Assembly (NCBI GenBank): GCA_973895155.1
Contig: OZ316894.1
Coordinates: 14,523,680 to 14,587,679 of the forward strand
Origin: Marsupella aquatica
Taxonomy: Eukaryota > Plantae > Marchantiophyta
Direction: 5' to 3'
DNA length: 64,000 nucleotides
Shown: one piece after another, positions 20,201 to 47,406 of the stretch
How positions within the stretch are numbered: the stretch's first letter is position 1
Layout: every line of letters begins with the position of its first letter
Translations under genes and position numbers: made by a program
The notes under the pieces: generated by a model
What the model was told of the DNA's origin: nothing
Seen by the model: the letters and a program-made list of their open reading frames with translations, nothing else
Databases searched by the model: none

Positions 20201-21917
20201 GGCCACCCCCTCCAAATCGGGTCCACGTGTAGAGCAAGCTCGATAGCCTGATGTTTGCAATCCATAAACATATCCAAACCCTGCCCAGTGCATAGAAAAC
20301 ACATTCATAAAATAAGGTTCATCAAGGCAAAAATCTGCATAATTGCAATTAAATACAAGGTTTAGGTACTAGAGGAAATAAGGGTTTACCATACCTGGTA
20401 AATCATGCATGGTCCACATAAGGATGGCCTTTAGAGTAAATATGCGGGATAAACCTCGTGTGTTGTGACGTCCATCATAACAATCCACTCCTCTCCACAG
20501 TTGTATCAACTCATCAATCAATGGCTGCAAGTACACATCAATCTTTTTAACTTGCTTAGGACCCGGAATAATCATGGAGAGTAGTAGGTGACCTTTCTTC
20601 ATGGCCATCCAAGGAGGGATGTTGTAGTTTGTCAACACTATTGGCCACACCGAATATGGTTTGGCTTTTCCTGTCAATGCAAAAGGGCTGATACCGTCTG
20701 CTGCCAAGCCTAGTCGAACATGTCGTGGGTCAATTTTGAACTCTCCCCATCTATCCTCTACAAATTGATTGGCAGGAGAGTCAACCATCATCCGCATGGC
20801 ACTAGAGGGTACAGCCATATCAGAACAATTTTGTGAGTGCCATACCATCATCTCAGCCAACTATGCACATCGGAATTGATGTCGCAATCGAGAGATAAGA
20901 GGAAAGTACCTCATAACCTTTTGCGGTACCTTCCCCGTCAACATGTCATCACGGTACCGTGGCTTCTGACATTTAGGACATGTAGTGGCATTTTCATGCT
21001 CACCCCTAAAAAGAATGCAATCATCCACACATGCATGTATCACCTCATACTTCAGGCCAATGGACCTCAACACATGTTTAGCCTCTTTCCAAGAGGCTGG
21101 CAATGCGTTGCCTACTGGCAAAATACGATCATGCAAGGTACGGAAAACATCATCCAAAAGTAGATTGCTTGCCCCATGTCTTTGCTGCAAGTTGAGCAAC
21201 AACATTATTGATGAGAGCCGAGATAACCTACTCCCCTCGAATATGCGAGTACGGGCATGACGTTGCGCCTCCTCCCATTGCTTGTCTTGGGACCCCCTAG
21301 AAGGATGTGGATGACTAGTCCTTTCATGGGTTGAACCATTGTCCTCCAAACCAATGTCATTGTGATCATCATAGAATTGGTCCATGAGCTCATCCATGGC
21401 CCTCTCCTCATCAAGATGGTCTTGGATAGGATCATCACCATCATGTTGTACCCCATCCTCTTGCCTTTGCGGTTCATGCCCACGGTTGGCCACCATGGCC
21501 TCAACAAGGTGTTGTCGCTAGCTCGTGATATTACCCCAATATCAGGCGTTACATATTGATTCTATCATACAACATCAATTAATTAATCTCATCAACACAT
21601 GCACTGCTGAACAAAATCATTCTCATGTAAACATGTAAAATACTGACATATATATATATACATGTATGTAAGTCCAAGAAACTATCATGGACGACAATGC
21701 AAGGACAATTTTGGTGCATCCCACTCATACTCACACAATAACTCCTCACCAGCTCTAATGGTCCTAACAGCTACTGTCATGATATGGTCATCCATATGTT
21801 TCACAAAATATGGATGTCTAGGTGGACCAAACATTTGAATCCACTCTACATTAGCCTCCAAACCTCCATCTCTACCTGTGGTACTATTGATGTACCCTGC
21901 TAAATTACCGTTCCGAA
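17263..21917. mobile_element. CACTA element 2 (same family as element 1), truncated by Mutator-like copy A
   Basis: CACTAGTACATTTT terminus at 17263 interrupts Gypsy pol; TCCGAT/ATCGGA subterminal motifs run to ~17745. Confidence 0.9.
18320..21561 (-). pseudogene. CACTA TnpD-like transposase (DUF4216/DUF4218/Transposase_21), decayed
   Basis: IHACVDDCILF, RHVRLGLAADG, LMWTMHDLP, LDPMHIEGNV, PPSFFDGQVH, WMYWVERYM, VFKCKWF; clear paralogue of 1-2108. Confidence 0.9.
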
Positions 21918-21927
21918 GGGCATCACC
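21685..21927 (-). pseudogene. 3' remnant of the SET-domain exon in CACTA-2
   Basis: GDALRNGNLAGYINSTTGR...NVEW...DDHIMTVAVRTIRAGEELLCEYEW, homologous to the 3' part of 2218-3180. Confidence 0.82.
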
Positions 21928-22597
21928 ACCGAGATAGGAAACAGGAAAACAGGATTCCTGTTAACAGGAAAACAGGAACTGTTATCAGTAAAGATATGAA
22001 GTTTTTGGCCCATTTTTGATGGAAAGGTAAGACTTGATCGGGTTCCTTGCAACAACAAAATTCACATGCTGTCTCTGTAACTGAATTACTTGTCCACCAT
22101 ATATGCGTAAACCATAGAGTGGGTCCCCCCATACATAGGCTACTGAGGCGAGGCACACTCCAAAAATACCAATCTTAAAAATATCATCGGAATCGGTAAG
22201 GTACTATGTAATAGCGCTAGGCGCTAACAAAAAAACCAAGGGGTTTGAGATGAGACCAAATGGATTGAACGGTGTTCATAAATAAATAATTAAGTACACT
22301 TCAATGAAGTGTGACCTGGAAGGGGAAGATTTATATCCCACGAGAAGAACTCAAATATAGGAAAGTTCACAAACGGAGATTCCGATCGCAAAGATAAGTA
22401 CTGGAAAGCATTCGGACCATAATCAAACAAGATTCACTCAGAAAGGGACAAATTGAAGCTAGCGCCCGACGCTAGCCATATGTTATAACAAAATGTGTAA
22501 AGAAAATGAGTATCTGATTAGGTATCATTGAAAAGATGTGAAACGTTCCAATGCGACAAATCAGTTTGGAGCCGTTGAATGTTACTAAATGTCTAGT

Positions 22598-25500
22598 CTA
22601 TAAGTCCAGAGAATTCTGCCTAGCTAGAATGAGCCTCACCTCACCTACAGTCAGAATTGGCTGACTAGCCAAAGTTGAATCCACCACATCTAGTTTTAGG
22701 ACGTTGGTATACACCCAATAGAGATGCTTGCACGACATGAAGGGCCTACCATGAGAATGGCGATGATAGAAGTCCTCACAAGAACAACATGGGAAAATGC
22801 AAATATGTACCCAATAAGTGTTTGCCGTGCGAAGTCTCTCTTGGGTTTGGATCTGAAATTGTTTGCCCCAAGAGTTCCCGATAGAAACATCAAATTGTTG
22901 AACGAGGGTCATCGACTCCTTGTTTGCAGATTCAATTCTTTTGTTGTGCCCTTGCAAAAGATTTGAACGTGGGATTGTATTTTTACCATTCCTGCTCCAA
23001 AGGCGGATATTTGGCTCAAGGAGATTGATTTTCTCCGGGAAAAGGTTCACATTGATTCGCAAGTCAAAAGGAGATGGAGCAGCCTGACGTCCAGCCTCTG
23101 GATTGACAGCAATCCCTTGCTGAGTCAGGAATTGGACCTTAGCCTTAGAAAGATTAGTTCCTTTCAAAACGGGCAGGCTATGAGGAAATGGGGGAAGATT
23201 CACCACATTACGACGGGGCCGGCTCTTATAGCATGCACTATTGGGACAAAACCAAATCATCTCAGGGTGTGGTTCTCCCCTGAACACGCGATATCCTTTG
23301 ACAACAATGCCAACTACACCATCCATTGACGGGTAACCAACCTTTTTAAGACGATTGCGACAGTCATCTCGATCCAATTTTCCACCAAGAGATCCATTAC
23401 GCTGAGGCCCTGCACCATGTCTCGTCACTCTTCGTAGGTGCCACGCCCCTGGTCGCACATCTGTCTCCAACACAGCTGAGTCATGGACAACCTTTTGGAG
23501 GTTGGGAGGTGCAGACCTTTTTGGAGGTTGGGAGGTTGGGAGGCTGCAGACGACCTTGTTGACCTCCTCCAAGGCGGAGTACTCCAATGTCTGCCTTCTT
23601 CAATTTCACTTTCTGACAGGTCCACAACGCCAATGTCATGGTGAATAGGACCCGATGCAACGGGGGAGAATTCAGTCTTGTTTAAGTTTTTCCTTTTCAT
23701 GCCTCGAGTATTTGGTGATGTTACAAGAATAGTGTCATGCCAATGGGAGTCTTGTGCCGAGATGTTCCCAGAGGCTTGACCTTTCCTCTTCATAGACTTT
23801 GTGGTAACATCCCCATTGAGAGGGCCACTCCTTTCCAGGTCGAATTCAGCCGCACCGGAAAGAAGCATATTGGAAGCATCTTGGAAAAGTTTTGAAGAAC
23901 CTGCCTGGTCTGCCGAACGGAATGCCAATTCCCAAATTGTAGGTCCGGTTCCTCGATTAAGACCTCTCTTATACGCCGTATACACAACAACTTGTGAAAG
24001 AGCCCTATTTTGATCCATCTCACATGCTTCAAATAGACCAGCCTTTTTCTTAGTTTGCCAAGCCTTCATTATGGAATGTGCCGCCTCTGAAGTAGTACAG
24101 TTAGGAATCATAGCGCTTTCCTCTACGCTTTTGTTCTGCATAAAACATTTGGAGCACAGTTTAGGAAATATGGCTTAGTCACTGCATTCAATAAAGAAAC
24201 ATTTGAACCAAATCATTTGGTTAGATTTACGGGTTTAATCAATGCCAGCGCCTGGCGCTACCACCATTCACACTAGAATATGGACAAATACGAGTAACAA
24301 GTGGTTCATAAAACTAGCGCCGGGCGCTAGTATCAAAACTCAGGCAAATATTGGAGTGGAACTAGGACACGGAAGTCACTGGAAATAATGATAGCGCCAA
24401 GCGCTAGTATGACTTTGTTTGATTCCTTCTTTTAAAATGGTGATTCGTGTGTTTACTTGTTTATGGATGTTGAAACTCACCAAACAAATGAAATTTCCCC
24501 ATTGACGCCATCGGACCACCCACCACGCAAGCCAACCTTGGAGCATCCGAAGCTTTCCTGGAACACAATTCCCTGATCTCCACCACATGTCGATTTCCCT
24601 GGAAATTATGTAGACTCCAAGAAATGTTGACGCGTTCCTTAAAGAGTCCCACATCTTCCGGTGCTCTTCTCGTTTTTCTTCCAATACTCCTTTAATTGAA
24701 TGACGATGAAACGATTGATAGAAGTGAAACGCATCCGATCGCTCCTTTTCCGGGTTAGGATGTCCACCAAAAAACATGTTCCGAACAACATTCCATCCAG
24801 CTTGAGCATTGTCAGCCATGAATCCATGGATTACTACGTTGTCTAACCCATTTTCATGGCAAACCTCAATCATCGATTTCCAGGCTTTTTCTAACGACTC
24901 AGAATCTTCAGCTTTCAACTCACATGTGAAGATTGTGCAAAGAGCACGGTAATTGTGATCATAAACGTGAGTGCTAAAAGTTATCCAATCCTTGGTCATT
25001 CTCCTCATCACATCAAAACTAACCCACGCGCCTTCTAGTCAACCTCTAGGTTGCATTTGGCGCAACAAATCAACTCCAAATCCGTGCCCTTTTACTGTCA
25101 TTTTGAAAATATGCGGTCGCTCCTCCTTACAGCCTTGACCTGGCAGCATGTAACGTTGTAGAAATGGAAAGTTTATGCATTTCTGCATTTCCACAAGAAA
25201 CTCTAACTCACCTTTACCTTTTTGGTCTTGCCGAACACTCCAAAAAAGAGATGCAAACTTTTGAGGGGTCGAAACAACCATTAACGACTCCCAAATTTCT
25301 CTTTCCTCCGATTCTCTGATGTCATTGTTGGACACACAGAGAGCCTTCCTTAAAGATCCAGTTATGGCATTCTTCATACCTGATGGTGTGGCAGACGATG
25401 TAGCTTCATGTTGCTTCTTTATGAACTCATGAGCAATATTTTCCGCACCTCGAGAAAAAACTTTACGACTGGGATGCGCATGATTTCCGACATGCACAGC

Positions 25501-26399
25501 AAGACGCGACATATGTTTACATGTATCCGCATCGAGAAGTAATTGCGGGTACATATAAAAAGCATAATTGCTGAACAAGCTTCAGTACAAAAGGGCAATT
25601 GTTGGTAGTAGTGAAAAACTACTCCACCCTCCTCAATAATCTTTCCCACGGTATGTGGCCCCGCAAGTTTGGGTGTCCCATCCCAAGCTTTTGAATTTCT
25701 TCTTCTCTTCCGTAGCAGATAATCACATTTCTGATTTCGACATTCGAGTGCACCGGTACACGTCACTTTACCAAATTCCCAAAACTTTTTAGGTTGGACA
25801 TTCGTAGAAGTTGGAAATATCCGTGTCCAGAAGTAGCAGTCTTTAGGCCTGTCCATGTCACGGAGCCTCGAACCTTTTGATAGCAGACCTTCTGCGGGAG
25901 GCAATTCAAACACAACATTTCCATTGTATTTACTCGGTAGACAATTCACCTGCTCATGAAATCACTTGTTTGGATGAACCGCGACAGTTCACTATGGCCA
26001 GTTGATTTGAGAATGGCATCCATTGCGCTTCGATAGAAGGCCCTGGATTAGCCGATGTTTGCAAATCTACGGCTACCTCCTCCTCTTCACTCTCGGAAAG
26101 GTCAATGAATGGAACCGGATGTCTTTCATTCAGAACGGAATGTTGTCGGAGATTGATATGTATCTCTTTCCAGCGTTGAGGTGCCAAAATCTGACTCCAT
26201 CATCGATATCAAATAGTGTGTCATCTGTCTCCTCGCCAGATGCATGGTCTGGTTTGATGGAATGGATGTCATTGATGGCAACGTCAAATCTTCCACAAAG
26301 ATAGTTCTCACTAACCTGTTTGTACATGTCGGATGAACCTAAAGGGATGCTTACAATCTCCCCAGTATCAGGACGAAGAAGCACGACTGAATTAGACAT
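22598..26399 (-). pseudogene. GCM-like + MULE DDE + SWIM transposase (copy A); intron 24480-24136
   Basis: KVTCTGALECRNQKC...VHVGNHAHP (GCM/WRKY-like Zn module), WVSFDV, GFMADNAQAGWNVVRNMF..AFHFYQS, PNCTTSEAAHS, SWIM CSCEDF..CKHLYWV. Frameshifts present. Confidence 0.8.
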
Positions 26400-27294
26400 T
26401 GCGGGAGAATGATATTAATTTGATAAACAAAGGAACGGAGGAAATAGGAGAACATTACTCGACTTAAGTTAAGTAAACTCATTCTGAACCTCAGAAGATT
26501 ATTGTTTGTAAATGACAAAATGGGTACTAGTCGTTAGGTGCAGACACATAAATGTAGTTTGTCGTTTTGCCAACGACACTACTTACCGGTAACGTGCAAA
26601 AAATGCGATCAGATAATTATTAGCGCCCGACGCTACCATAAAGAAGTACCCGGGTTTCAACTTAGAAACCAGACTGAACATGCTAGCACCAGGCGCTATC
26701 ATTGGGGGACTGTCAAGTCAAAGAGAAATATTTTATTGATTTTGATGGAATTGCTGAAAAAATCAATAAACGTTTCATTTTGTTTTGGAATCGGTACTTC
26801 TTAGGAAAATACAAGGGGTATACATAGCTAGCGCCCAGCGCTGACATAATCTCCTCCCTGTCATCGTCATGTATGAGAGTATTTTTAGTGGTTTTTGATA
26901 CTAGCGTCGGGCGCTAGTATCGATGGAGATGACTTTGGTTTGCGCAACGGTTATATCTAACGGTAACATGTATGAACAAATTCCTTACTTTGTGTTGTTT
27001 TCTGTTAGATTGTTTAACAATACGTTCCCGTTCATTGCTGCATCCACAAATGACTTGAAAGTATACGTTAATTCTACTCATTTCAAACAGTCTCTGGCAC
27101 CTGTCTTTGTTTGGATTGGTCAGTGAGATTCTTTCAATCCTTCTTGTTCTACGTCACATGATGTCAACAGCACTATGATGGAAAAGTTTTAAAGGTTTTT
27201 TGTTGTTCTTTGTGTACGGTAATTTGTTTGGAGCGTGAGGGTAGAGACTGGCTCTGTGTCGTACAGAGACCTTCATGTATTGACATGCTCCACA

Positions 27295-30200
27295 ATGCAA
27301 CCTTCAAGCGCCCCAAGCTCTCCAAGAGGGTATACCACAGTTCCAGAGGAAGATCACGGTCATTGCGAGTCTACACAATCTTTGTTCTCTGGGGCATTTT
27401 ACTCGCGTCGAGTTACAAGGTCAAGCGGAGCAATCACTTCCATCAACGCAACACTACCACACCAGAAGTCCAGAAGGGTCCGAATGGACACGGATAGCAT
27501 GACCGATTACGCGCTGGGAGAGGGCAACAAGGTTGGATTAGGGATGGATGAAGTCATCTCGCGACACATAATGTCATTTGGAAAAGATTTCTGGGGAAAC
27601 GAGAAGGAACCGCCCAGGATTCCGCTTTGTCGGTTGATCCACATGGAGGTAGTGCGGACGCTTCAGAAGGAGAGTGCGTCAATTGAGAAATTGAAAGACT
27701 CGTTCCGAAGTAGTGGCTACAATCCAAGGATTGGAATGCGGTTTTTGTGCAACCGACCAATTCTGATGGTGTGGAGAAAATATGCACTGAGGAGATCAGG
27801 GAGACTTGGGATGCTATTTGGGTTGCTGAGAACGAGAAATTTGAGTTAGAATGCACGACAGATCCAACTTTTACGATCTTGAAAGACAAAATGTTCTTAG
27901 TGTTTGATGGGAATCACCGACTTTACTCGTGGACTATATATGGTCACAAAGGAAAATCCAGACAATGTCAAGTATCATCCCAAAGTTCTCTGCACCATTT
28001 TCAAGGGTGATAAAGCTTCGCAAATTCAGATTGAGGCGGCTATGCACACTGTCAACCAGTAAGTAATTCGGCACAAACTTGTAATTAAACATTTCCGCAA
28101 TCCGTTGCTGTTAAATAAATACTAAAGAGAGTGTTTTTTATGCTAGCGCGTGGCGCTACTAATTTCAAACATGGCCTATTGCAGGTTAGGGCAGGCCGTT
28201 GTTGAACCGTCTTGGATCCTTGACGCAGACAGAATCCGAAGCATTCTCTCTCACGATCTAGAGTACTATAAGTCAATAATTGACAGCGCCAATTATGCAA
28301 AGTTTGAGTATATCAAACAGAAGACTCGAAAACATTCTTGGTACACACGGAAAATGCCTTTGGAAGCTCTTGTTTATATTTTGTGCGAAAACAAAATCAA
28401 AGCTTACATAACCAGTTCAAGATGGACATGGCATTGGCAGCAAGTCAAGGCAGTCCTTGGTTGGCTGATGAGGTCGCAAAGCAACAGTCACTCATGTTGA
28501 AAGAGGCCACCAAAGACTGGTCTACGAAAACATCCAAAATCACTCCTCTTCTTAATCCTGAGTTTGAAGATTTTCTAGGTACTTGTGCAAAGATGTACGT
28601 ATTGATGGAGAAGAACAAGCGAGAGAAAAAAACCCGATTCGGTTGTTTGTACTATGGACCATGCTAGACTATTCACAGCCGTTTTTGCTCTCGATCCAAA
28701 ATTGAGATGCACTTTGCTTGTTGCTCATTGTACTCCAGAGTTGAGAAAACAATTCTTCCACCCTGCCAGTGTGAATGATGATCCAGTGAAGCAGTGGTGT
28801 CACACATGGCAGACCTGGAATACCGTCGAGGGAATCGCAATTGGGATGTTGCAATCTGCAATTTCTGTAGCCATTGAAACACTCCCAATTGATAGGCTTG
28901 CCCATTCAGGGTGTGACTCAGTAGAGGGTCTGATTGAATTATTTCAAGTGAGTTCAGAAGGTATGGGGATCTTGTGAAGGCAAAGTTCTTCAACACCATG
29001 TGGCCATCAAAATACCCTGATAAAGAGGTATATACAGAGAAAAATCAGAAGAGGGCCAAGAGGTATTTGTATTGTTTTTACATATGGATGGAAGTACATT
29101 CCCCGGATGCGCTTTGGGCGTATCCAGCCGCATTTCACAAGTGGATTGTTGCAAAGGAGGGAGATCATGTTGCTGACTTGTATTCGATGTATCCTGCTGA
29201 GGGTAAACTTCCACCACGGGAAATGTCTGAGTGGGAAAGAATTCACTGCCCGTGGTATCTTGACACAGACAAGTGGGATTCACCATTTGACGAAGTGGAG
29301 AAGGATTGGTTTCTTAAACTAGCCAAGTTGCAGATTCTACCCAACATAGTTTTTGAGATGAAGCAAGGGCTCCTGAGCGACGTCGACAAATCATCTACTG
29401 AGTTACAAACAATCTGCGAGACAGTAGTTGTACATGTAGACACGAGCCGCAAGCCGAGAGGGAAAGTGAAAGTAGACACAGCACTGCCAAGTGCATCAAC
29501 GAGATCCGGGAAGAAACATACGTTTCCATTCAAACCCAGTTTAGTTCTTTGCTAGCGCCTGGCGCTACTATTCCTGTACTTCAACCTTAATCCATTTTTT
29601 TTCTTTCTGACACTTATCCCACATTCTATGCAATGTGTGAATAGGTCAAAAGAAGTCGGATGCAGACGCCACTGATGATACAAAGGTTACCCCGGAAGCT
29701 TCAGAAGCAAATACTGGCGCTTTGCCAGATCCACTTAGACCAATTAATTCTGGAAAATCAATTGTACCAGTCGATGCAACGAGTACAAAGAAGAAAAGCA
29801 GGAGGACTCGCGATGTTGGGCAATCAGAAAGGGATTCTCTGGCGGCCACCGGGCTCCAACGTGATGTTGGGAATTTTAAATCCAAGGCATCTCGTCATTG
29901 TTTCGTTGAGACCAGTGTCAGTGAATTAGTGGACAGTGTGTTTAACAAGGAGGAGAAGCCAAAATGGGTTAATGATGCCGAAAAGTGGGGGAAGGACTTA
30001 ATCAAATCGGGATGCCGACTGAAAGGGGTGGTGAGGGGTGGGAAAGAGAGGCCTTTTGGTGTTGACGCTGGTTTTATTTATTTGCCAACTGGGCTAAAAC
30101 CAACTTTGCTTGATAGGAAGGTCCCTAAATGGAACGTTCCCGGCTGTACGCTAGCCCAGTGTTTTTTCCGGGCAATGGATCCCTTTTTGTTGGATGACGG

Positions 30201-31109
30201 AATTATTGCGATACTCCATACAGGGGAGTATGATCAGATTTCACAGGTCATCTCAACATGTCAAGAGTCTAAGAAATTCCAATGTTTGTGTACACATAAT
30301 GTTGTCATGGGGTTCCCCATGTACAAGGCCAAGTCTGATTTGCAGGTAAATCTATTCATCACACTTTCAAAGTTTTGCTAGCGCTAGGCGCTGCTCATTT
30401 TATGTAGTGCTCGATTAGAAATTTTAATCTTTTCCTAGGTACACTACTAATCATACTATTAATTCTTTGCTAGCGCCCGACGCTATTACAATTCTTTGGT
30501 CCTTACTTGTTCATGTTCCCTTTTCAGGTATTCACTTTACGTTTAGATATATTTTGTCGAGTATCATCCAAGGTGAAAGTCCCCAAGGATCCTAAGTTCA
30601 AACCTCTTTCAAGAGCAGAGGATCCCTCTATCACAAATCTGATCGGACTTCCATTTGCGAAGGTGGATACAACTCCAGAGCTTGAATTTGCCGAGAATGC
30701 CAGACTACATCCAGGGTTTATGCAGTATGTTTTGGAACTAATCACGTGTCCCAGAGATATTGTTCTGGATTGGGCTGTAGGTTCTGGGAGTACATTTGTG
30801 GCAGGTGATAATTGTGGTCGATTTGTAATTGGGCTTGAGAATAGGAAGGAGTTCGTTGAAACTACTTCAAAAATATTTCTGGACCTTCTAACTCCCAAAG
30901 TATCTGAGTCCAAAGCCCCTCCGAAGCCTGTGCTTGCAAAACGAAAGAGAGACAAACTTAAATCAATATTAAATTTTGACTCCGAAGATGAGAATGAAGC
31001 AGAAGAGGGGGATGAAGAAGAGGAGGATCCGAACATTCCTAGAGTGTCTTTAACCGGAGAAGATCCGGAATCTAATGGAGGGAGTGACAGCGAAGACTCT
31101 TCTGAGTAA
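27295..31109 (+). pseudogene. ParB/Sulfiredoxin-like domain + helical region + beta-class N6A/N4C DNA-methyltransferase-like domain (copy A)
   Basis: VRTL..IEKLKDSF...GY and MFLVFDGNHRLYSW (~27890-27932); VDAGFIYLPTG..W..FLLDDGIIAILH; HPGFMQYVLELITCPRDIVLDWAVGSGSTFVAGDNCGRFVIGLE. Predicted introns 28059-28184, ~29518-29644 (donor apparently mutated) and 30346-30527. Confidence 0.72.
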
Positions 31110-31723
31110 GAAACTACCGAGTAAGCTCATAAGCTAACCCGGTTTTTATTACGGTCGATTCCCTTCTTCTCTCTTTGATGTCACATTTTTTTTCCTTTTT
31201 TGCAAATATTTTGGCTGTTGACATCAAATCCAATATTCTCCTCCTCAGGTCAGACTGGAATCTTCGCTGGCGTTTCCAACTCAGACGGAAAGTAGCTAGG
31301 CGATATATTGAAACTCCCGAGAAACCATTTGTCTTACCTTCCTATGCTGAAAATGTTGCTAGAAAAGTTGACAGTGTGCCCTAAACTGGGAGAATAAAGG
31401 CTTGAGATTAAGGAGGGGGTCTGATAGAAAATTTATGCGGAACCGATTTGTGGATGATATGGCCAAGAGCGAATTTTTAGACATCGAGGCAGAATCTACC
31501 GATAGGTCCGAATCCCGTGAATCGGAGTGCTCGGATTAACTTGGATCTCTGTTGTTAATTTGGGTGTATTTTTAGTGCAACTATGCTAGCGCCGGGCGCT
31601 ACCCAAATGTATGCCAGAAATACTGTACAATAAAGATATTATATGTCAGTTGTAACCATGGAGTGTCCACTCAAAGTACTCTTTCTATTATAGTAGCGCC
31701 CGGCGCTACTATAATTGTATAAC

Positions 31724-34463
31724 ACACCAAAGCCCCTCTCTTTTCCACCACGCATTACTCCCTTCTCTCTGTCTCTTGACTTTACCAAATCCTTTCCCTA
31801 GGCCTCAACTTTAGTAACCCACATGGGCTTCAGCCCCTTGTTAAATACTGAATTGTAAAATTCATTTAAATTGGACTCCACAAAATAGTGTCGAGAAGAC
31901 CTTCGTTTAAAATGCCTGACATCTCTCTGGAGTCCATAGGAAATAACGTCTCGAGTAGATGATGCTGCTCTGTCCTCACCGGCGCCTCTTTTTTTCTTTT
32001 TCTTAGTGCTAGTTGCATCGATAGGGACAATGGACTTGCCAGCACCATCTAGGGTCACTTGATCCGGGGTTTCTTGAGCTCCAGTGTTTGCCTCCGATGC
32101 CTGAGGAGTTGCATCACTCTTCCCTTTGGCAGCCGGTACCTCCGTGTCAGACTTTTGCCCTCCTGTTAGGCACAAAAACTTGCATGAGTCCAACCTTTTA
32201 GACCAGCGCCAGGCGCTATTAATGAAAGGAATTTCCAATCCTGCATAACCAGCACCAACAAGTAACCAAAAAGTGCTTAGACAACTCACTTTTCTTGAAG
32301 GACCTTGTGGACTCACTTGGTGCAGCTGACTCATTCTTCGCCTTTGCTCTTGGCTTACGGCTTTTGTCAACGTGCATGACAAGAGACTCACAATTCTTTT
32401 GTAACTCAGATGCAGATTCATCAACATCAGACTGTAGACCTTGCTTCATTGCAGACACATAGTTGGCAGGGATTTGGGACTTCTGCAATTTCATGAAGGC
32501 ATCCTTCTCAGCTTTGTCGAACGGCAAATCCCATTTGTTTGTGTCGAGGTACCACGGATAGTGAAGTCTCTCCCACTCCGACAATGAACGTGGTGGAAAC
32601 TTTCCCTCCGATGGGTACATCAAATACAGGTCGGCAAGAGGGTCTCCCTCTTCAATAGATACCCATTTTTGAAATGCAGCAGGGTATACCCATAGAGTGT
32701 CAGGAGATCTAAGCTCCATCCACATGTAAAACCGGTATAGATATCGTTTGGCTCTTTTCCGGTTCCGCTCTGTGTAATCTTCCTTGTCCGCATATTTGGA
32801 AGGCCACAAATTGTTGAAGAATTTTGCCTTCACCAAATCCCCAAAGTTCTTGAATTCATCGAGAATGATCTTCAGCATGGCATCCATTGACTCACATCCA
32901 GACTTTGTGAGATGGTCAGCCGACATCCGGTCAGAAATCTGTTTGAAGGAAGTGTGAAGCATTCCAGTTGCAATTATCTCAACAGAATTCCAAGTATGCC
33001 ATGTATGGCACCACTGCTTCACAGGCTCGTCGTTGACACTTGCAGGATGGAAAAACTGTTTCCGAATCTTAGGAGTGCAGTGGGCTACTAGAAGGGTGCA
33101 CCTCAATTTTGGATCCAGGTATGACACTGCAGTAAACAACCGGGCTCGATCCATGGTGCATACGACTATCTCTGGCTTCTTCTCCCATTTGTTCTTCTCA
33201 GTAACGGGATACATCTCAGCACAGGTTCCCAAATAATCTCCAAAATCTGGATGAAGTAAAGGGGTGATGTTGGTCACTTTGATTGACCAATCTTTGGTCG
33301 CCTCCTTCATCATTGCCTCATGCCTCTTCGTGGTCTCCTCTTTTGATCAAGGCGCACCTTGAGCTTTGGCTAAAGCCATATCAGACTTAAATTGATTTGA
33401 GTAAGACTTGATTTTGTCCACACACAGAATATAGATGAGAGCGTCCTGTGGCATTTTGTGTGTGAACCAAGACCCCTTTCTCGTCTTCTTTCAGATCGCC
33501 TCAAACTTTACCATGTTTGCGCTGTCGATCAGTGGTTTGTAGTGATCAAGATCACGCGACAGAATTTGGGAAATTCTGTCCGCGTCAAGAATCCAGGAAG
33601 GTTCGACGACTGCTTGTCCAAGCCTGGATGAAATGAGAAGGAATTAGTAGCGTCGGACGCTAGCAAAGATTGGGGAATGAACACTTTCGTAAAGCATGTT
33701 TGGTCCAAAATGAATGACAAGGGTAAAAACACTTAACAAATATAACTTACTAGTTCACGGTGTGCATTGCCGCCTCGAGCTCAACTAGCGAACCTCTGTC
33801 ACCATTGAAAATGACGCAAATCACACAAGGATGATACTTCAAGTTGTCCGGATTCTCCCTCGTGACAATTGACCAGGAGTACAATCGATGATTTCCGTCA
33901 AACACACAGAACATTTTATCTTTTAGAATATGGAATGTTGGATCTGCATCACACTCTTCCTCAAACTTCTTGTTCTCTGCAACCTAGATTGGATCCCAAG
34001 AGTCCCGGATCTCGCTGGTGCATATCTGAGGAACTCCATTAGCATTTGCAGGCTGAACGTAGAAAGGCATCCCAATGCGCGAGTTGTACCCTATGACCCA
34101 GAATGATTCTTTCAACTTCTCGATTGACGCACTTTCTTTCTGTAAGGTTTGAACAAGCTCCATGGGGAGCAATCTACAAAGAGGAATTCGAGGTGGCTCC
34201 TTATCAAATCCTCATAAATCCTTCTCGAACGGCAACGCATGCTTTGATATTACCTCGTCCATCGATAAGCCAATGTCACTGACTTCACCCATGGAGACCT
34301 CCTTAGGGTCCATTCTTCCTCTTCTCGACCTTGGGAAGGGCTGTGTAGATTCAGCTTTGGAAGTTGACAGGGACGCAGTCGATCGAGTGACGTGACGGGT
34401 GTATACAGAACCAGCTAACGAAGACTGAGAGGACTCAGAATGACCACCATCAGCCTCCCCCAT
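31724..34463 (-). pseudogene. ParB-like gene (copy B), truncated before the MTase domain
   Basis: PPRIPL, GYNSRIGMPFYVQP, VFDGNHRLYSW, MDRARLFTAV, WPSKY..KRAKRYLY. Introns 33750-33624 and 32289-32163 at the same positions as in copy A. Homology stops at GGKERGFGV. Confidence 0.8.
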
Positions 34464-35504
34464 TCTGATATCACCCAGCCAAAAGATGTTGTGGAGAGGG
34501 ACTCGACCATCTGACAGTGTCGTACGCGCCGTGTAGTTCTTGTGACGATCACCGAGCAGGCTGTACGGGACCAATAAAGGACCCACATACACACTTGACA
34601 AACTTGTACAGTCCGAGGTCTGAGCGCTTAAATGGACTAAATTATCTACAACAGCAATCCCCACCTCGTATTAAGTCACCAATACGATGGACCCAACCAA
34701 TCGATTACAACGGTCAAAAGTACAGATGGCATTCTCCGATTGGACTTTCATCCGAGACAAAAAGAAAAAGGGTTTTGTGAACCTCAATCTATTCTAATAT
34801 TACCGTTGGAAAGTGTCCGTTGGAACCAGAACAATGTCGGTAATTAAAGATAGCGCCAAGCGCTATTATAAAACATACACTCAACTGAATTTGAAAATAC
34901 CGTCTTCCAATAGCGCTCGACACTAGTATCGATAATAATATCTATAAATTTTCAAATTTTGCGTAGATGTCAACCCGCCAACGTTAATAGCGCTCGACGC
35001 TAGTATAGATGTGACGCCAATGACATGGTCCTTATTTTGTAATCTGATTAAGTAGGTTGCTGTATGCAAGGAGTAGCTATTGATATTGCATAACAATTAG
35101 CAAGATGGCAAGAATAAGGGCAATCATGGCGTTAAGAGTAGGGAAATAAAAGCTATGTCGCGGGTGGTCGATGACCATATCTCTTTCAATATGTCACCAA
35201 ATCCGGATATGTAAAGAGCATTGGAAAGATCTGGTCAAGGCGAGTAAAATCGATATAAAATGCTTGGGAAACGGAGGTGTATTAAGGAAGATACGGCCTG
35301 ATTAGTGTGACGGGTTAACTTGTGGCCGGAATTAGCGGATTCGGCTTCAGTTTCGGGTTAACCCAAGCTCGGCCACGGTTTAGCTTAGGTAAACACGGCT
35401 TCAGCTTAGCTCAGGTAAGCACGGCTTCAGCTTAGGCTTAACCCGGGTTCAGATTAGATTGATCTCGGGTTAGACTCGAGTATAATGCTCATCGAGAAAA
35501 GATC

Positions 35505-38500
35505 GTGCCTTTGGCTGTGTATCGGCAGAGTGCAATGGATACAATCTTGAAATCCAAAGGTCATAGTGAATTGTCTCGGTTTATAAGGGGGAGTGATTTT
35601 GTTCATCACGTAGTGCCTAGTCTTCCCACATCTTACAATGGGAATGTGGTTTTTGAGTTACCCCCGGTAGACTGTGTGAACGCGAAAGGTGAACGTTTGA
35701 AAGATATGGGTCGCGGTAAGGATTGTTATTACTGGACTTGGATTGTGAAAAGTCTTCAAATGTTCTTCCGAAGAAAATGTGGGATTTTGGGAAAGTTCAG
35801 TGTACGGGATCGCTGCAATGTCAAAATAATGCTTGTTTGTGGTGGAAAGACAACAAGTTTTGGAAATAATGAGATGTGGGCAAGAACCCCAAAACTTTCG
35901 GGCCCGTTCCGAGTTAGGGAATTGATCTCCAAAGGTGGAGTTGTTTGTCACCATTGCTCCAAACCTCCAATGTGCGTTGAGGCCTGCCCTGCTCTAATGT
36001 TCTACATGTATCCATCTGCGAAAGTTGACGTAAAGTCTTTGGCCCACATGTTGTGACTTGCTGTTCATATGGGATTTCACAATCATCCCAGTCGACGGGT
36101 CTGGTTGAGGGAGGCAAAAAAGGTAGCAAGGTCTCATCTGGAGAAGGGATTCAGTGCAAACCCCATGGCAACCCCAACAGGGATAAAAAACTCTGCCACT
36201 GAGACATTGACAAATACATTTTGCGAGGCCTCTGTTGAAGAAATCTCTCTTGAAGAAGAGAAGGAAATCTGGGAGTCCCTGATGGTCGTCGCATCTCCTT
36301 AGAAGTTTGCATCCGTGTTAAGGAGTGTCCGTCAAGATCAAAAGGGGAAAGGGGAACTGGAATTTCTTGTGAGGATGCAAAAGTGTATCCAACTGCCTTT
36401 GCTTCAGAGGTTCTTGCTCCCTGGTCAAGGCTGCCGAGACGAGAGTGCTCATATCTTTAAAATGACTGTAAAAGGTGACGGTTGTGGTCTGGACCCGCTC
36501 CAAAGAATGAAACCTAGGGGGTCGTTAGAGGGTTCATGGGTAAGTTTTGATGTGATGCATCAAAGCACGACAAATTGGCTTACTTTCAGTGCCCACGTAT
36601 ATGATCATCATTACCGGGAACTTTGCACCATATTCACTTGTGAGCTAAAGGCCGAAGATGCAAAATCTCTGGAGAGAGCCTAGCGTTTGATGCTAGAGGT
36701 TTCCGATGAAAATGGTTTATAGGATGTTACAATTCGGGGATTCATGATGGACAATGCTCAAGCTGGCTGGAATGCTATTCGAAGCATGTTCTTTGACGGC
36801 GTACCCGACCTAGAGGAAGAAAGATCAGATGCCTTTCATTTTTTCCAATCTTTTCATCGTCATTCCCGAGAAGGTGTGAAAGATGGAAAGCACGTAGAGC
36901 ACAAGGAGATGTGGGATCGTCTTTGGAACGCATCAGCTTTCTTGAAAGCGTATCGAATCTCTAGGGAAATTGATGACTGGTGGAGGTCTAGCAATTGTCA
37001 CTCAGGCAAACTTTGGATGCTCCAAGGGTGGTTGTCTTGGTGGGTTGTTCGATGGAGACAATGGGGGAACTTCATAAGACTGGTGAGTTCTAGTCTTTTC
37101 TAGTATGCATTTGCCCATTAATAGCGCTCGACGCTACTAAAACATGCGTGAGACAGCATAGTTCCTTATCTGCAAGAGTAGCGCCAAGTGCTAGTAATCC
37201 ATTTGGCCTATGAGTGATATAAGGACTACCTTTATTTTGTGTTCAACTGTACTTTACATGGAAACATCATCATCAAGTATGGTATACTAGCGCCTGGCGC
37301 TACTATTATTTCCATTGTGTTGCCACTTGTGAGTGCAATTTCTTATATGTACTAAACACTTGCGTGCAATGTTTCAGAGCAAGAGTGCCGAAGAAGCTGG
37401 GATGATTCCAAATTGTACTGGATCGGAATCTAGGCATGTTGGAATGAAAGCATGGCAACAGAAAAAGAAGGTTGGTCTCTTTGAAGGATGCAAAACGGAC
37501 CAAAGTAGAGTTGTTGCTCAAATTGCTGCTTATACGACATACAAAAGGGGATTGAACAGAGGAACTGGCCCAACTATTTTTGAGCTTGCCTTCAGATCGG
37601 CAGACCTGGCGGGGTCACTGCGTCTCTTTGAGGAAGCCACCAATCTTCTCCTGTCAAACGCTGCTGAGTTTGATTTGGAAAGAAGCGTTCCATTGAATGG
37701 GGATGTTGTAACTCAATCTATGAAACAAAAAGGACATGCAACTGGGAACGTCTCGGCAGAAGACTTGCACAGGCATGATACCATCCTTGTTACTTCACCA
37801 AATACAAAAGGTTTGAAAAGGAGAAACCTGCATTCCATTGATTTTGAGAAAATGCCTTCTATGCCTTCAGCCGGTGGAATTGATGGGGTCCATAATTTGT
37901 CCAAAAGCAATACTTCTGAGGAAGTTGTAGTCATTGACACACCTTCGCGACAAGCAACGAGATCCTCTGTCCCACCAGTGACCCCTGCAAGAACTGTCGA
38001 GACTGCATATTGTTTTTCAGTTTTCCCAATGGAAAGTGAAGTACCTCCCGGTGCCTGGCAATTGCGTTGGACCTCAAAACGGGGTGCAGGTCCAGTGTGT
38101 AACGGAACCCTTGGACGGGGAGGGAGTCATGATGAATGTTGAAATCGAGTAAAGAAGGTAGGCCTTCCGAATCCAGATGGTGTTGTTGCAATTTCTGTGA
38201 GGGGATGTAGAATGTTCAGGGGGCAACCTTATAACGATCAGATATGGTTTTGCCCCAACAACCACTATCACCAAAGCACAACAAGGAGATGAGTCTCGAA
38301 CATTCCCAATGTTCCTTCCCATCTTCCAATTGCCAGAGGAACGAATCTATTTGGAGCAGAGATTCAATTTTTGAAAGAACAAGGACTTATTCTCTCTGAA
38401 GGCCGTGGAGATGAAATCGAAGCACCGTTGTCATCTGCGTTACGGATTGATGTCAATCTTTTCCCAGAGAGGATCAACCTAACTGACCCATGTGTGAGAT

Positions 38501-38904
38501 GCGCTTCAAGGAACGAGAAGAAATGCTTGCAAAGAGTGCATCTTACCCACACCCATTTGAAGAGAATTGAAGCCTCTAAAAAAGAAGTCATGAGCGTCAT
38601 TGGAGAGAGAGAGATCACGAGTGGAAATGCATCGGGGAAACAGTTTTGTATCCGGACCCATGAACATGAGAGATCAGTCACCTCTTACTGGGTTCAGATA
38701 TGTTGTTTCCCATGTTGCTCCTACGAGGATTTCTACCGTCGGCATACTTATCGGAAGCCTTACATGCCTTGCAAACATGTGTATTGGGTGTTCAAGAATG
38801 TGTTCAAACTGGATGTGCACGATTCGACATTATGTAGCCAGCCAATTCTAACGTTGGGAGACGTCCGTTACATACTTGATAGGCAGTTGGGAACAAGAAT
38901 TTAG
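35505..38904 (+). pseudogene. GCM-like + MULE + SWIM transposase (copy B); intron 37083-37377
   Basis: SYNGNVVFELPP, CHHC..C..CPALMFY, GFHNHP, WVSFDV, FMMDNAQAGWNAIRSMF..FHFFQS, PNCTGSESRH, PCCSYEDF..CKHVYW. Confidence 0.8.
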
Positions 38905-39192
38905 ATTGTTGCTTTAACGTTGAACAACTAGAATTGTAGTTTGTCTTTTCTAACGGGCAGAAGTGAGTTGTTTAAGTGCTGTTTTTTTAGTATAATACAA
39001 TACTAGCGTCGGGCGCTAGTATTGTATGACTTGTGTTTTGACTTCATAATTTGTTGCAATATATTGGAGTCCTTGTGTGAAATCGTCAAAAATATTCCTC
39101 TGATGTCGTATAGTGGTGGGCCCCACCACAATGTTGTCCGCACAATTATTGCATATATGGACGCTAAATACCCTGAAGAGAAGAAACTAAAA

Positions 39193-39346
39193 TGCATACA
39201 AGAAAAGAAATACTTGTACGAGAAAACAAAAACTCATACAAGAAAACAGAAACTCGTACGAGTAAATAGATATGCTCATACAAGTAACTTGTTTACTCGT
39301 ACGAGACAAAATTTTGCTTGTACGAGGCAAAATTTTCTCGTATGAG
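39193..39346. repeat. Subterminal array of the 10-bp palindrome CTCGTACGAG (8 units, 20-22 bp period)
   Basis: Units at 39193 (degenerate), 39213, 39233, 39253, 39275, 39296, 39317 and 39337; variants are mostly C>T/G>A. Confidence 0.85.
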
Positions 39347-39385
39347 CATATCTATTTACTATTTGCTATCACGGTGGTTATACCC

Positions 39386-39513
39386 CATCGATTGTTGCTA
39401 AGAAGAATCGGAAGGGGCCATTGGGAGGGTCTACGGGGCCACAAACGTCCACATGGATACGCTCAAGGAATTGGGGTATTTGCTTGTCAGTTGTGGAGGG
39501 TGATGGTCTGATT
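39386..39513 (-). pseudogene. Copia-2 integrase N-terminal fragment
   Basis: Minus strand reads IRPSPSTTDKQIPQFLERIHVDVCGPVDPPNGPFRFFLATID. Confidence 0.88.
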
Positions 39514-40339
39514 CACTAGTAGAAACCGGGGGGTATTTAGACCCCATTAAACGACTATTCAGTACCGTATAGGACTTGGAAACCACTGGGAAGGACTCTA
39601 GTCCTTTATAGGACTGCGAGTCGTATGTTTTGTTACTATAATCAACTGAGTCCTTTATAGAACTGGTTTATAAGTCGTTTAATAGACTGGATTTTCAGTC
39701 TATTTTAGTCTTTGTGTGGGTAGCTTTGGTGAGTCGTTTTTAGTCTTTTATGGGCTGCGATGATGAGTCGTTGGGAACGACTAAAAAGGTTATGGAGGGT
39801 AGTCTTTAAATATACTTTGTGGGGTATGTATAAGTCTTTTATGTCAACTGGATATGAGTGATGAAGACCCCACTATACTACTTGGAATGAACCCACTCTT
39901 GTGCACAAATAACATATTGCATTCATATTTTATTGTGTACTTGGAATGAACTCACTCTATAAGTTCACCATTCATCATGTTAACATTAGAATACATAGTT
40001 TCAGAAAGCCATCTTCTATACCATGTACACTAATATGAATTCACAGATTCAAACTTCATAGACTGCAAAGAAGGTCACAAAGTATTCCTCTATACCATAC
40101 ACACTAATACTGAAATGATAAAATAGATTCAAGTATCATAGACAATCACCATAGAGCCATAGTTTGACATCAATCACTTGTTTCATACATACAGAATTCA
40201 GAAATATCAATGTCACACACAACGTCTCCTTCATCCTCTTTACCAAATGGAAAAATTGGTACAGATATTTCTTGGATCTTTCCAAGGCAATGTCAAAATG
40301 TGACACAATTCACATGATGCTATCTACACTTGCATTCAG

Positions 40340-43529: not shown

Positions 43530-43706
43530 AGCTTCTGCACAGCACCCACAACCAAACAGGGAGAATCAGCACACTAAATTCAAAGTATCAATCAATTTCA
43601 TGCATATCCAACTATCCTAAACATCATTCCAGGCAGCAATTCCCGTTATGTGACTCTGTGCAGGTAGTCATCCTCAACCTCATACTTGCCAATCGCCAGC
43701 TGTTGC

Positions 43707-46700: not shown

Positions 46701-47406
46701 AGGAAGGTCAACAACTCTGTCACAAATATATTGGGAACATTGTGATTGCCACAGATGTTCAACAACAACACGACAAAACCCAGCTTGGAGCAGTTCGACC
46801 CCTCGTAGATAGGATGCAAGCTTCTTTGATGTGTTTTGGGCCCCCAAACACCCACTCCCTCTCTGCTGCACCTTCCCCAATGTCAAAGTCAGGTTGAGCT
46901 TGGCCGTCGCCAATGTGTGGCTGCGGTTCATTGTCCTCTTCTGATTCCACTGTGTCGTAAAAAGCATCAAGGTCTTCAAAAATCTCTTGAACCATTCTTG
47001 GGACATCCATCCCACCGTCCTCAGTGACTGCCTCTGCATCTCCATCTTGGTCATCCACGTTCTCATGTTGGACCCCAGGACCATCCTCTGCACAGTCTAT
47101 GTCCTGCTCTACGTAGTCTCTACGCCTAGCTGTATTAGAATCCACAAAGTCAGCTCTCCACTCTTCATCAGAGGAGTCTTCTTCTACTGGTACATTCCAA
47201 ACCCTCCACCGAGGGTGCCTTTCATGCCGCAGCAGGTGAAGGTGCACAGTGTTCAAACTCAACGACTTGAATCCTTGGCACTGTGTGCATGGGCATCTCA
47301 TCCTCCTACTCCTACCTTGGGCGGCCCGGGCTTGTTCACGCATCCACAATTTAGAATCATGATGCCTAATCCTAAATGGGTTGTGAAGAGGCAACCTTGG
47401 AGCCAT
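43707..47406 (-). pseudogene. CACTA TnpD-like transposase with one apparent frameshift near 46850
   Basis: MRCPCTQC..HL, IDACPDGCVLF, LRHFPLIPRL, FGLSLDGVNPF, IADYPG, DVMHIEKNI, KTHDYH, FPPAFFDVMTH, RWMYPMERYM, EPFVFPSQVEQAFF. Confidence 0.92.

Follow-up and report, generated by a model that had tools for sequence, protein, structure and literature searches.

A palindrome repeated in the non-coding DNA of a two-gene Mutator-like transposon of Marsupella aquatica, a candidate site for the accessory protein of the element

A short palindrome was found to recur throughout two inverted, decayed copies (A and B) of a two-gene Mutator-like transposon. In the window (the whole stretch of DNA analysed, 64 kb), 25 matches to TAGCGC-N3-GCGCTA with at most two mismatches were counted against 0.47 expected, none of 100 shuffles reached 25, and all 25 fall inside 22212-39018. 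Judged from the sequence, the palindrome has about an even chance of being the DNA site for the element's own accessory protein (the product of gene 2), serving self-recognition or anti-silencing.

Results

Distribution of the palindrome

The remaining ~47 kb of the window, occupied by CACTA, copia, gypsy and LINE sequences, contained no match with up to two mismatches. Enrichment was seen only at a spacer of 3 nt when spacer lengths were compared, and a scan of the window for palindromes with a 2-nt spacer returned none. The match at 24111 (two mismatches, TTT spacer, within the transposase exon) was set aside; the other 24 sites are all non-coding, non-coding DNA making up 26% of the region. 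Their consensus is symmetric over 21 bp (TRN-TAGCGYC-N-GRCGCTA-NYA). The sites were located in introns (12/24) and outside them (12/24), in the promoter shared by both genes and in the 3' flanks, and every base of the region has a palindrome within about 1.1 kb (maximum distance 1,114 nt). All 14 motif coordinates quoted in the original prediction hold the palindrome or its extended arm, and its promoter-region counts (four in A, three in B) were reproduced, as were further sites downstream of the genes (two beyond the transposase of A, one beyond that of B). Site spacings of 57-145 nt showed no helical phasing on inspection, and none of the nine tandem-repeat rows in 21500-40500 overlaps a palindrome site. 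The 21-bp pattern was matched once in viral DNA (L002), within apparent coding sequence, and this match was treated as chance.

Of two extended arms claimed beforehand, the one at 31687-31715 is perfect over 14 bp, and the one at 38995-39027 is real and longer, 16 bp including a single T-G mismatch. At least five extra paired bases were found at 3/24 sites (P about 0.008); summed outer-arm complementarity was 97 versus 90 under random pairing (P 0.17), so that the three long arms alone stand out. Flanks were shared between sites in 7/1,128 pairs versus 2.4 expected (P about 0.02), a small excess. Foldback copying of one arm may create new sites, which would explain the over-long arms.

Structure of the two copies

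A and B were identified by self-BLAST as inverted copies with 64-71% identity (Table 1). CACTA similarity stops near 21917-21930, beside A. Mutator-like elements have terminal inverted repeats and target duplications of 8-11 bp. Clear terminal inverted repeats were not found in A or B, the transposase-side ends having only a 10-mer in common, and those on the gene-2 side have been lost or have fused. The repeat that replaces the start of the B transposase has, in X1-X3, a summed contig depth far over that of adjacent bins and contains a tandem array at 35374-35457. Each copy holds two genes only, and a ParA-like gene was sought in both and not found. With the motifs removed, CpG observed/expected was 0.65-0.68 in A and B versus 0.30-0.58 in nine other measured segments, which may reflect age; by distance from the sites it was 0.65, 0.70, 0.70 and 0.60, without a gradient. 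The AACGG pair upstream of gene 2 is taken by us to be MSA/MYB-like. MSA-like motifs are linked to mitotic expression.

Table 1. Features of the two element copies and their palindromes (positions in the window)
Feature	Position	Strand	Remarks
Copy A	22097..31720		Two-gene Mutator-like element; both ends uncertain; self-BLAST
Two palindromes 3' of A transposase	22212..22474		22212, 22460
A transposase exon 2	22598..24135	-	Putative catalytic glutamate, SWIM-like end
A transposase intron	24136..24480	-	GT-AG, 345 nt; palindromes 24246, 24315, 24392
A transposase exon 1	24481..26399	-	Cysteine-rich N-terminal part, first two catalytic aspartates; frameshifts, stops
Four palindromes between head-to-head genes of A	26621..26916		26621, 26684, 26829, 26902
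AACGG motif pair upstream of gene 2	26943..26966	+	B counterpart about 34805-34826, minus strand
A gene 2 exon 1	27295..28058	+	ParB-like region with DGNHR; uncertain start, frameshifts
A gene 2 intron 1	28059..28184	+	126 nt; palindrome 28144
A gene 2 exon 2	28185..29517	+	All-helical domain, about 420 residues; frameshifted
A gene 2 intron 2	29518..29644	+	127 nt, donor AT instead of GT; palindrome 29553
A gene 2 exon 3	29645..30345	+	Linker and first methylase-like half; YLPT at catalytic motif position
A gene 2 intron 3	30346..30527	+	182 nt; palindromes 30379, 30471
A gene 2 exon 4	30528..31109	+	SAM-binding half of N6/N4 DNA methylase-like domain, then acidic tail
Gene 2 candidate intron 4	31106..31248	+	GTAAGA donor, pyrimidine tract, CAG acceptor; no palindrome
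Two palindromes at A/B junction	31587..31715		31587, 31694; end 9 nt before B truncation point
Copy B	31724..39160		Inverted versus A; gene 2 cut off at 31724; other repeat in place of transposase 5' part
B gene 2	31724..34600	-	Exon 1 about 34600-33751, exon 2, exon 3 truncated
B gene 2 introns	33624-33750; 32163-32289	-	Palindromes 33648; 32204
Three palindromes, promoter region of B	34851..35002		34851, 34911, 34988
Unrelated higher-copy repeat replacing start of B transposase	35074..35480		26-nt tandem unit; approximate limits
B transposase	35480..38904	+	Intron 37083-37377 (palindromes 37122, 37179, 37288); stops, frameshifts
Palindrome 3' of B transposase	38995..39027		39004, 16-bp arms
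Candidate terminus	39151..39160	-	10-mer common to 22097-22106 (matching end of A)

The transposase and a distant relative

The best Atlas matches of the transposase were MULE clusters (0.95; family common to the best 10/10), and the Pfam HMM search of the transposase gave no MULE match. The DxFH motif and both aspartates were aligned in 8/8 sequences, the glutamate being assigned by position only, and the cysteine-rich N-terminal region is conserved among homologues. A SWIM-like CxC...CKH pattern was read by eye at the end of the protein in A and B, without a Pfam match. The intron junction in A agrees with 7/7 homologous open reading frames, which stop 8-39 residues beyond it. No transposase relatives were found in the viral contigs searched, and PDB sequence searches with the transposase, exon-1 and middle-domain profiles returned nothing meaningful.

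A 2-kb contig (L001), whose transposase DNA shows about 60% identity to that of A and B and which is without gene 2, has three palindromes in the corresponding transposase intron. Each of them has the same half-site and a 2-nt spacer, and one has perfect arms of 29 bp. Its intron is unalignable to those of A and B (z 0.3 and 0.6). The palindromes might be bound by the transposase through its conserved cysteine-rich region, for autoregulation or transposition assembly, gene 2 then not encoding the binder. The AtMu1c (MULE) transposase does bind and activate cognate copies without an accessory protein, and in L001 the sites adjoin a transposase alone; however, AtMu1c binding peaks at terminal repeats whereas the palindromes here are internal and evenly spread, and published ParB-like accessory genes with unrelated transposases likewise adjoin inverted repeats, and this explanation is rated as quite unlikely.

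Gene 2

Gene 2 has about 1,125 codons, and by sequence its product resembles a ParB-like part followed by a helical domain and a beta-class methylase-like part. The junction of intron 1 in A lies where the homologous frames stop, and in P0054, an annotated protein of Riccia, the frame continues through it. DGNHR is present in B exon 1 and in 5/7 examined homologues. The 'ParB' label of the original prediction stands as a sequence resemblance (weak matches of the exon-1 part to ParB-like, DGQHR and DUF1015 models, E 0.001-0.3) but gained no structural confirmation, the model of this part having a pLDDT of 39.5 and the fold search returning single-helix matches only. The nearest Atlas clusters of an exon-1 homologue were DUF3723, not ParB (0.95; 179/256 features; below the recognition threshold), and the Pfam DUF3723 HMM gave no match in the exon-1 part. 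Prokaryote genomes, phages and plasmids yielded no exon-1 relatives. A viral search with exon 1 reported one candidate, without a locus.

For the middle helical domain (exon 2), 77 homologues were found, and a homologue was modelled with a pLDDT of 89. This confident model gave no Foldseek match at E ≤ 0.001 and none at Z ≥ 8 in a wide search, which is not proof of a new fold; its best structural match had Z 6.2 over 57 residues (rmsd 4.5), and no helix-turn-helix was recognised in it. With exon 3 as the query, no longer homologue was found.

Pfam N6_N4_Mtase (PF01555) was matched in gene 2 with E 1.4e-7 (32.2 bits, cut-off 26.7; model positions 170-219), and DpnA, MboIIA and CcrM were matched as well. 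The order is of the beta type, with motif I, for SAM binding, following the position of the catalytic motif. The catalytic (D/N/S)PP(Y/F) motif (DPPY) is absent in all four sequences that reach that region, which read YLPT in A, DLPT and DMPS in the Riccia homologues P0051 and P0080, and nothing recognisable in P0060. The domain is thus probably inactive, as read from its residues, and self-methylation of the kind proposed for algae is doubtful because the catalytic motif is degenerate.

The gene-2 protein could also be a mechanical ParB-like clamp that condenses the element, joins its ends or holds excised copies through division, with silencing unaffected. The lack of clear terminal inverted repeats, the degenerate methylase motif and the MSA-like AACGG pair that A and B both retain upstream of gene 2 are in keeping with such a clamp, but the element is without a ParA-like gene and its CpG content is above that of neighbouring elements, and a purely mechanical role is considered rather improbable.

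Introns and retention of the sites

The claim that every intron carries the palindrome was borne out for 7/7 predicted introns, including the two palindromes of gene 2 intron 3 (A only), but not for the candidate intron 31106-31248, which has none within three mismatches. Counts in A and B agree in the introns (3/3, 1/1 and 1/1), as had been claimed, but differ outside them. An action of the motif as an RNA hairpin on splicing or small-RNA production would suit its presence in all predicted introns, and 10/12 intronic copies pair all six stem positions in the sense strand (four via G-U). Half of the 24 sites, however, lie in the promoter region or the 3' flanks, the donor-to-site distance varies widely (about 33-220 nt), the hairpins are weak (-4 to -7 kcal/mol) and what stays constant is the sequence of the motif, a double change occurring at just one of the 24 sites. 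Of the two readings offered originally, a dimeric binder or a hairpin, a dimeric DNA binder therefore fits better, because 12/24 sites are non-intronic and 2/12 intronic copies have a sense-strand C-A mismatch; the hairpin is held to be very improbable.

The similarity of the intron flanks between A and B is marginal or absent, in agreement with the original prediction: motif-free alignments gave z = 1.7, 0.06 and 1.5 (24, 229 and 33 of 500 shuffles reached the score). Corresponding sites occupy non-corresponding positions (offsets 34 versus 71 in intron 2). With flanks near-random and positions differing between copies, the sites therefore turn over while their counts persist: what is kept is that sites exist and how many there are, and not where they lie. 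Fourfold-degenerate sites are identical between A and B at 13/42 positions, near saturation, and CpGs are intact at 45/48 motif positions, exon CpGs being common to A and B at 17/154 positions. Since neutral sites are near saturation, motif CpGs are intact and the distant relative has three palindromes too, the proposed selective retention is supported over the long term; no constraint was seen over the short term, as among close copies the motif core varies about as often as the flanks (4/12 core versus 24/93 flank positions at the one testable site).

Stable counts with site turnover are typical of enhancers. This pattern would also be expected if a host transcription or chromatin factor bound the palindrome and the element had accumulated its sites, but the absence of sites from the other 47 kb of the window and the joint change of spacer at all three L001 sites, which fits an element-specific binder (although L001 may be from another host), make a host factor decidedly unlikely. 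Neutral foldback or conversion by-products, surviving only where reading frames stay unbroken, would account for the over-long arms, the small excess of shared flanks and the lack of constraint among close copies; the persistence of a single CpG-rich sequence across copies with saturated neutral sites, and of a trio of palindromes in the transposase intron of each of A, B and L001, makes them very improbable.

Deviations from the motif had been described as mostly C>T/G>A, which is correct for 13/17, but they are concentrated, ten falling at one position (CCG). Half-sites in CCG context were converted in 9/12 cases and other half-sites in 1/36. At position 24320 the T form is the majority allele among related copies, and the T form at CCG is therefore probably tolerated and not simple decay. 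This position may be a hot spot of methylation and deamination.

Discussion

Under the preferred explanation, a dimer of the gene-2 protein would bind the palindrome as double-stranded DNA, possibly spread from site to site, and mark the entire element as self, by which silencing would be prevented; the introns would be landing pads within long coding regions. A more specific form of it is unlikely, namely that a Mutator lineage of land plants operates a parS/ParB-like clamp on itself, in which introns would be kept as loading pads, the element would be coated and shielded from 5mC by a sliding clamp of the CTP type whose methylase domain is dead, and subfamilies would distinguish themselves from their relatives through a change of one base in the spacing of the palindrome.

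Sequence-specific anti-silencing by transposons has been shown mainly in Arabidopsis, and for algal ParB-like accessory proteins it is a proposal. The present family offers a precise candidate site and a natural specificity variant (3-nt versus 2-nt spacer), and homologues are found in liverworts, which include a transformable model, so that the proposal is directly testable. If it is true, the introns within a DNA transposon would be explained, and a short tag that can be transplanted, together with a single protein, could be used to keep transgenes from being silenced.

Literature searches returned nothing linking ParB to a MULE plus methylase and transposase, and no ParB/CTP sliding clamp in a plant transposon, and the papers listed included none on a bryophyte element of this kind. 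ParB proteins are characterised by an N-terminal ParB/Srx fold with a GxxR motif, CTP-dependent loading and sliding, an HTH domain and a ParA ATPase partner. As in bacterial ParB/parS, a palindromic site is repeated in cis here and DGNHR stands where ParB has its GxxR motif; unlike it, the element has no ParA partner and no recognised HTH, and for its ParB-like part no close homologue was found in prokaryotes or phages. The beta-type methylase order is that of phage ParB-methylase loci (PMC4738411).

Accessory genes of the ParB-plus-methylase type, and also inverted repeats close to accessory genes, are already published for algal transposons, as far as the available parts of the sources go. 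According to the accessible text on Ectocarpus Sola1-1_Ec32 (PMC12477816), its accessory gene (1,104 residues, ParB-like and N4/N6 DNA methylase domains) lies on the strand opposite the transposase, and the protein is suggested to act on its own element by binding and modifying it; no binding motif is reported in that text. Gene 2, compared by description, is alike in domain order, length and strand opposite the transposase (ParB being a resemblance), and differs in the Mutator-like transposase, the land-plant host, the degenerate catalytic motif and the defined palindrome in introns. In the available part of a report on red-algal Plavaka elements (bioRxiv 10.1101/2025.02.11.637652), inverted repeats adjoining the gene for the ParB-like accessory protein PAG3 are proposed as its binding sites, the PAG2/PAG3 cassette includes a PF01555 methylase, and homologues are noted in Chondrus Mutator elements. 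A ParB-like protein, nearby inverted repeats and a PF01555 methylase are thus common to both systems, whereas, as described there, PAG3 carries a fused 2OG oxygenase, the methylase comes from a gene of its own together with a SET domain, and the repeats are tandem arrays beside PAG3, in contrast to single sites spread through introns here.

DUF3723 is described in the text seen as a conserved cargo gene, of unknown function, of the large mobile fungal elements named Starships (PMC9156397); both are accessory genes and the Atlas clusters are the nearest, but the element type differs and the Pfam DUF3723 match is lacking. Marchantia MpDN4MT1a/b are active host N4 methylases with TSPPY, according to the part available (bioRxiv 10.1101/2021.02.12.428880); they have in common with gene 2 a prokaryote-type N4 methylase fold in a liverwort setting, the element's domain being without a TSPPY-like motif.

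VANDAL MULEs carry subfamily-specific VANC motifs in introns, intergenic and terminal non-coding regions, with an effect that spreads over the element, as stated in the accessible portions of the sources (PMC5735166, PMC10398659). VANC motifs are described there as 8-9 nt long, non-palindromic and in tandem repeats, whereas the palindromes here lie outside any tandem array, and no VANC-type Pfam family was shared by the gene-2 pieces or 66 homologues. As far as those portions go, both systems join a Mutator-like element and an accessory gene to motifs that are specific to the element, differ between subfamilies and lie in intronic, intergenic and terminal non-coding sequence.

Results

The palindrome TAGCGC-N3-GCGCTA was found at every position named in the original prediction. 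In the window, 25 matches with at most two mismatches were detected against 0.47 expected, all of them inside the region of the two transposon copies A and B (see table), and other spacer lengths gave at most one weak match apiece. The match at 24111 (two mismatches, TTT spacer, exonic) was excluded, and all 24 remaining sites lie in non-coding DNA, which makes up 26% of the region. Sites or clusters are spaced at intervals of 0.5-2.2 kb, and the farthest base is 1,114 nt from the nearest site. The palindrome set is a real and strongly non-random feature. With both halves folded together, half-site position -2 was a purine in 48/48 and position -3 was T in 38/48, and the first spacer base was C in 38 of the 48 half-sites; the folded halves gave the symmetric longer consensus TRN-TAGCGYC-N-GRCGCTA-NYA.

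By self-comparison, A and B are inverted and 64-71% identical in coding parts; each contains two head-to-head genes interrupted by stops and frameshifts, amid CACTA, copia, gypsy and LINE fragments named by inspection. Judging by its sequence, gene 1 is a Mutator-type transposase: the closest Atlas clusters of its homologue are MULE, and both aspartates and the DxFH motif are present in 8/8 transposase sequences, while a comparison of gene 1 with Pfam HMMs gave no match. Every one of the region's 30 bins was covered by contigs of four public runs; these contigs come in many variants, which fits a repeated family.

Features and side observations by position in the window or in L001
Feature	Position	Remark
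Region holding all 25 matches	22212-39018	
Gene-2 intron 1, A; B	28059-28184; 33624-33750	
Gene-2 intron 2, A; B	29518-29644; 32163-32289	
Candidate further intron	31106-31248	
Possible extra gene-2 coding sequence	31249-31545	acidic, protein-like stretch near 31430-31545; motif-like remnant with 2-nt gap near 31293
AACGG motif pair upstream of gene 2, A; B	26943-26966; ~34805-34826	promoters otherwise diverged
Long-armed palindrome and break-off point of B's gene 2	31687-31724	9 nt between the two
Hairpin in L001	L001:1172-1231	29-bp perfect arms
Short G+C hairpin	39110-39127	near B's end
20-nt tandem array inside inverted repeat	39184-39360	MITE-like
Three CACTA-like transposase copies	1-2438; 19489-21902; 43700-47400	two 73% identical; CpG strongly depleted
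Open frames adjoining CACTA-like copies	2218-3180; 48443-49306; 49890-50597	SET-, BRCT-, PHD-type look by eye; possible accessory genes
~189-nt tandem array	6604-7265	within 461-codon glycine-rich frame

Seven introns are predicted, six of them with GT-AG ends and A's intron 2 with an AT donor. Their support is indirect: 7/7 transposase homologues and 4/4 exon-1 homologues stop shortly beyond the matching junctions, and an annotated protein of Riccia is continuous across the position of gene-2 intron 1. Introns 1 and 2 of gene 2 are 126-127 nt long in both copies despite their unalignable sequence. The claim that every intron carries the palindrome held for these seven; the candidate further intron is without the motif.

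The data support selective keeping of the motif over long times. Only 13/42 fourfold-degenerate sites are identical between A and B and 17/154 exon CpG positions are common to both, whereas 45/48 motif CpGs are intact. As predicted, the intron flanks show marginal similarity or none between the copies (z of 1.7, 0.06 and 1.5 for motif-free intron alignments). When cores (the 12 fixed bases) were paired in order, 54/60 bases matched against 64/200 in the flanks, a comparison that is partly circular because the sites were picked by pattern. Site offsets within introns differ between the copies, so sites were gained and lost while their counts persisted. An independent test of retention came from L001, a metagenome contig of 2 kb whose transposase is related (~60% DNA identity). 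Its intron cannot be aligned with that of A or B (z 0.3 and 0.6) and contains three palindromes with the same half-site and a 2-nt spacer in 3/3. Neutral spread of palindromes is at odds with this retention and agrees with the close copies, among which selective keeping was not borne out: at site 24315, on which this comparison rests, 4/12 core positions vary vs 24/93 flank positions (no variants were listed for the two outer sites, which is probably explained by contigs ending at them). Such similar variation is the expectation for neutrally decaying copies and is not support for selection.

Most deviations from the motif (13/17) are C>T or G>A, as had been stated. Ten fall at position 6, where 9/10 convert CCG to TCG, and half-sites in CCG context are converted in 9/12 cases vs 1/36 of the others, a pattern that fits deamination of methylated CCG. 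At 24320, most of the contig depth belongs to the T form in all four runs (some contigs derive from a look-alike promoter site), so that the T form at position 6 is probably tolerated. The central CpG is almost unchanged in the motif, though it is the more mutable site in exons. The CpG observed/expected ratio is 0.65-0.68 in the element with motifs removed vs 0.30-0.58 in nine other segments, for which age is a confounder, and no CpG gradient was found around the sites in the element.

The original prediction left open a dimeric binder or a hairpin. An RNA hairpin would suit the intronic sites; however, 12/24 sites lie outside introns, and the sense strand of the 12 intronic copies has a C-A mismatch in two, G-U dependence in four and a double change in one. 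A putative dimer reading double-stranded DNA is the better fit to three features: a sequence that stays fixed, an outer consensus that is symmetric, and a spacer that changes in concert. At least five extra paired bases occur at 3/24 sites (P about 0.008) and likewise at all three L001 sites; these over-long arms suggest foldback copying as the way in which sites arise or are repaired. The extended intronic hairpin of L001 is possibly a recently born site, and A and B may have become fused at a palindrome.

Gene 2 of A comprises ~1,125 codons, as calculated from exon lengths. Exon 1 has a DGNHR motif and weak matches to ParB-like, DGQHR and DUF1015 models; 'ParB-like' denotes a resemblance only. 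A homologue of exon 1 adjoins DUF3723 in Atlas. Exon 2 is predicted to form a helical domain (77 homologues, confident fold in the model), for which no clear match was found among solved structures. Exons 3-4 resemble a beta-type N4/N6 methylase, the SAM-binding half scoring above the Pfam cut-off. Since the catalytic position is degenerate (YLPT in A; in two homologues from Riccia, DLPT or DMPS), binding or shielding of DNA is a more probable role of this domain than methylation. Homologues are only ~22-30% identical; of 20 proteins looked up, 8 could be named, and these belong to the liverworts Riccia sorocarpa and Calypogeia fissa, which makes a bryophyte the probable host. The AACGG pair upstream, which we take to be MSA/MYB-like, could indicate cell-cycle-linked expression.

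Discussion

By holding sites inside long coding regions, introns would allow a bound protein to cover the element. The gene-2 product is judged the likeliest binder and self-marking of the element against silencing the likeliest purpose. The transposase is a rival binder, and a MULE transposase binding its own copies is described in 10.64898/2026.08.24.746577; a host factor as binder and a mechanical clamp role are further, less likely readings.

Comparable components described elsewhere are phage ParB-methylase loci (PMC4738411), the Marchantia N4 methylases MpDN4MT1a/b (10.1101/2021.02.12.428880) and DUF3723 cargo genes of fungal Starships (PMC9156397). In the literature searched, from which subscription journals were mostly absent, neither a land-plant Mutator element of such a kind, nor a site in each intron, nor a subfamily spacer change was found. 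The layout of the palindromes is like that of VANDAL MULEs, whose introns and intergenic regions carry motifs bound by VANC (PMC5735166, PMC10398659), and their symmetry is like that of bacterial parS; in both cases the relation is one of likeness only. In red algae, PAG3 carries a ParB-like domain, with adjoining inverted repeats proposed as its binding sites (10.1101/2025.02.11.637652). With such ParB-like accessory genes published, the architecture and the hypothesis are already in print, and the palindrome system described here is a variant of this recently proposed, so far hypothetical kind.
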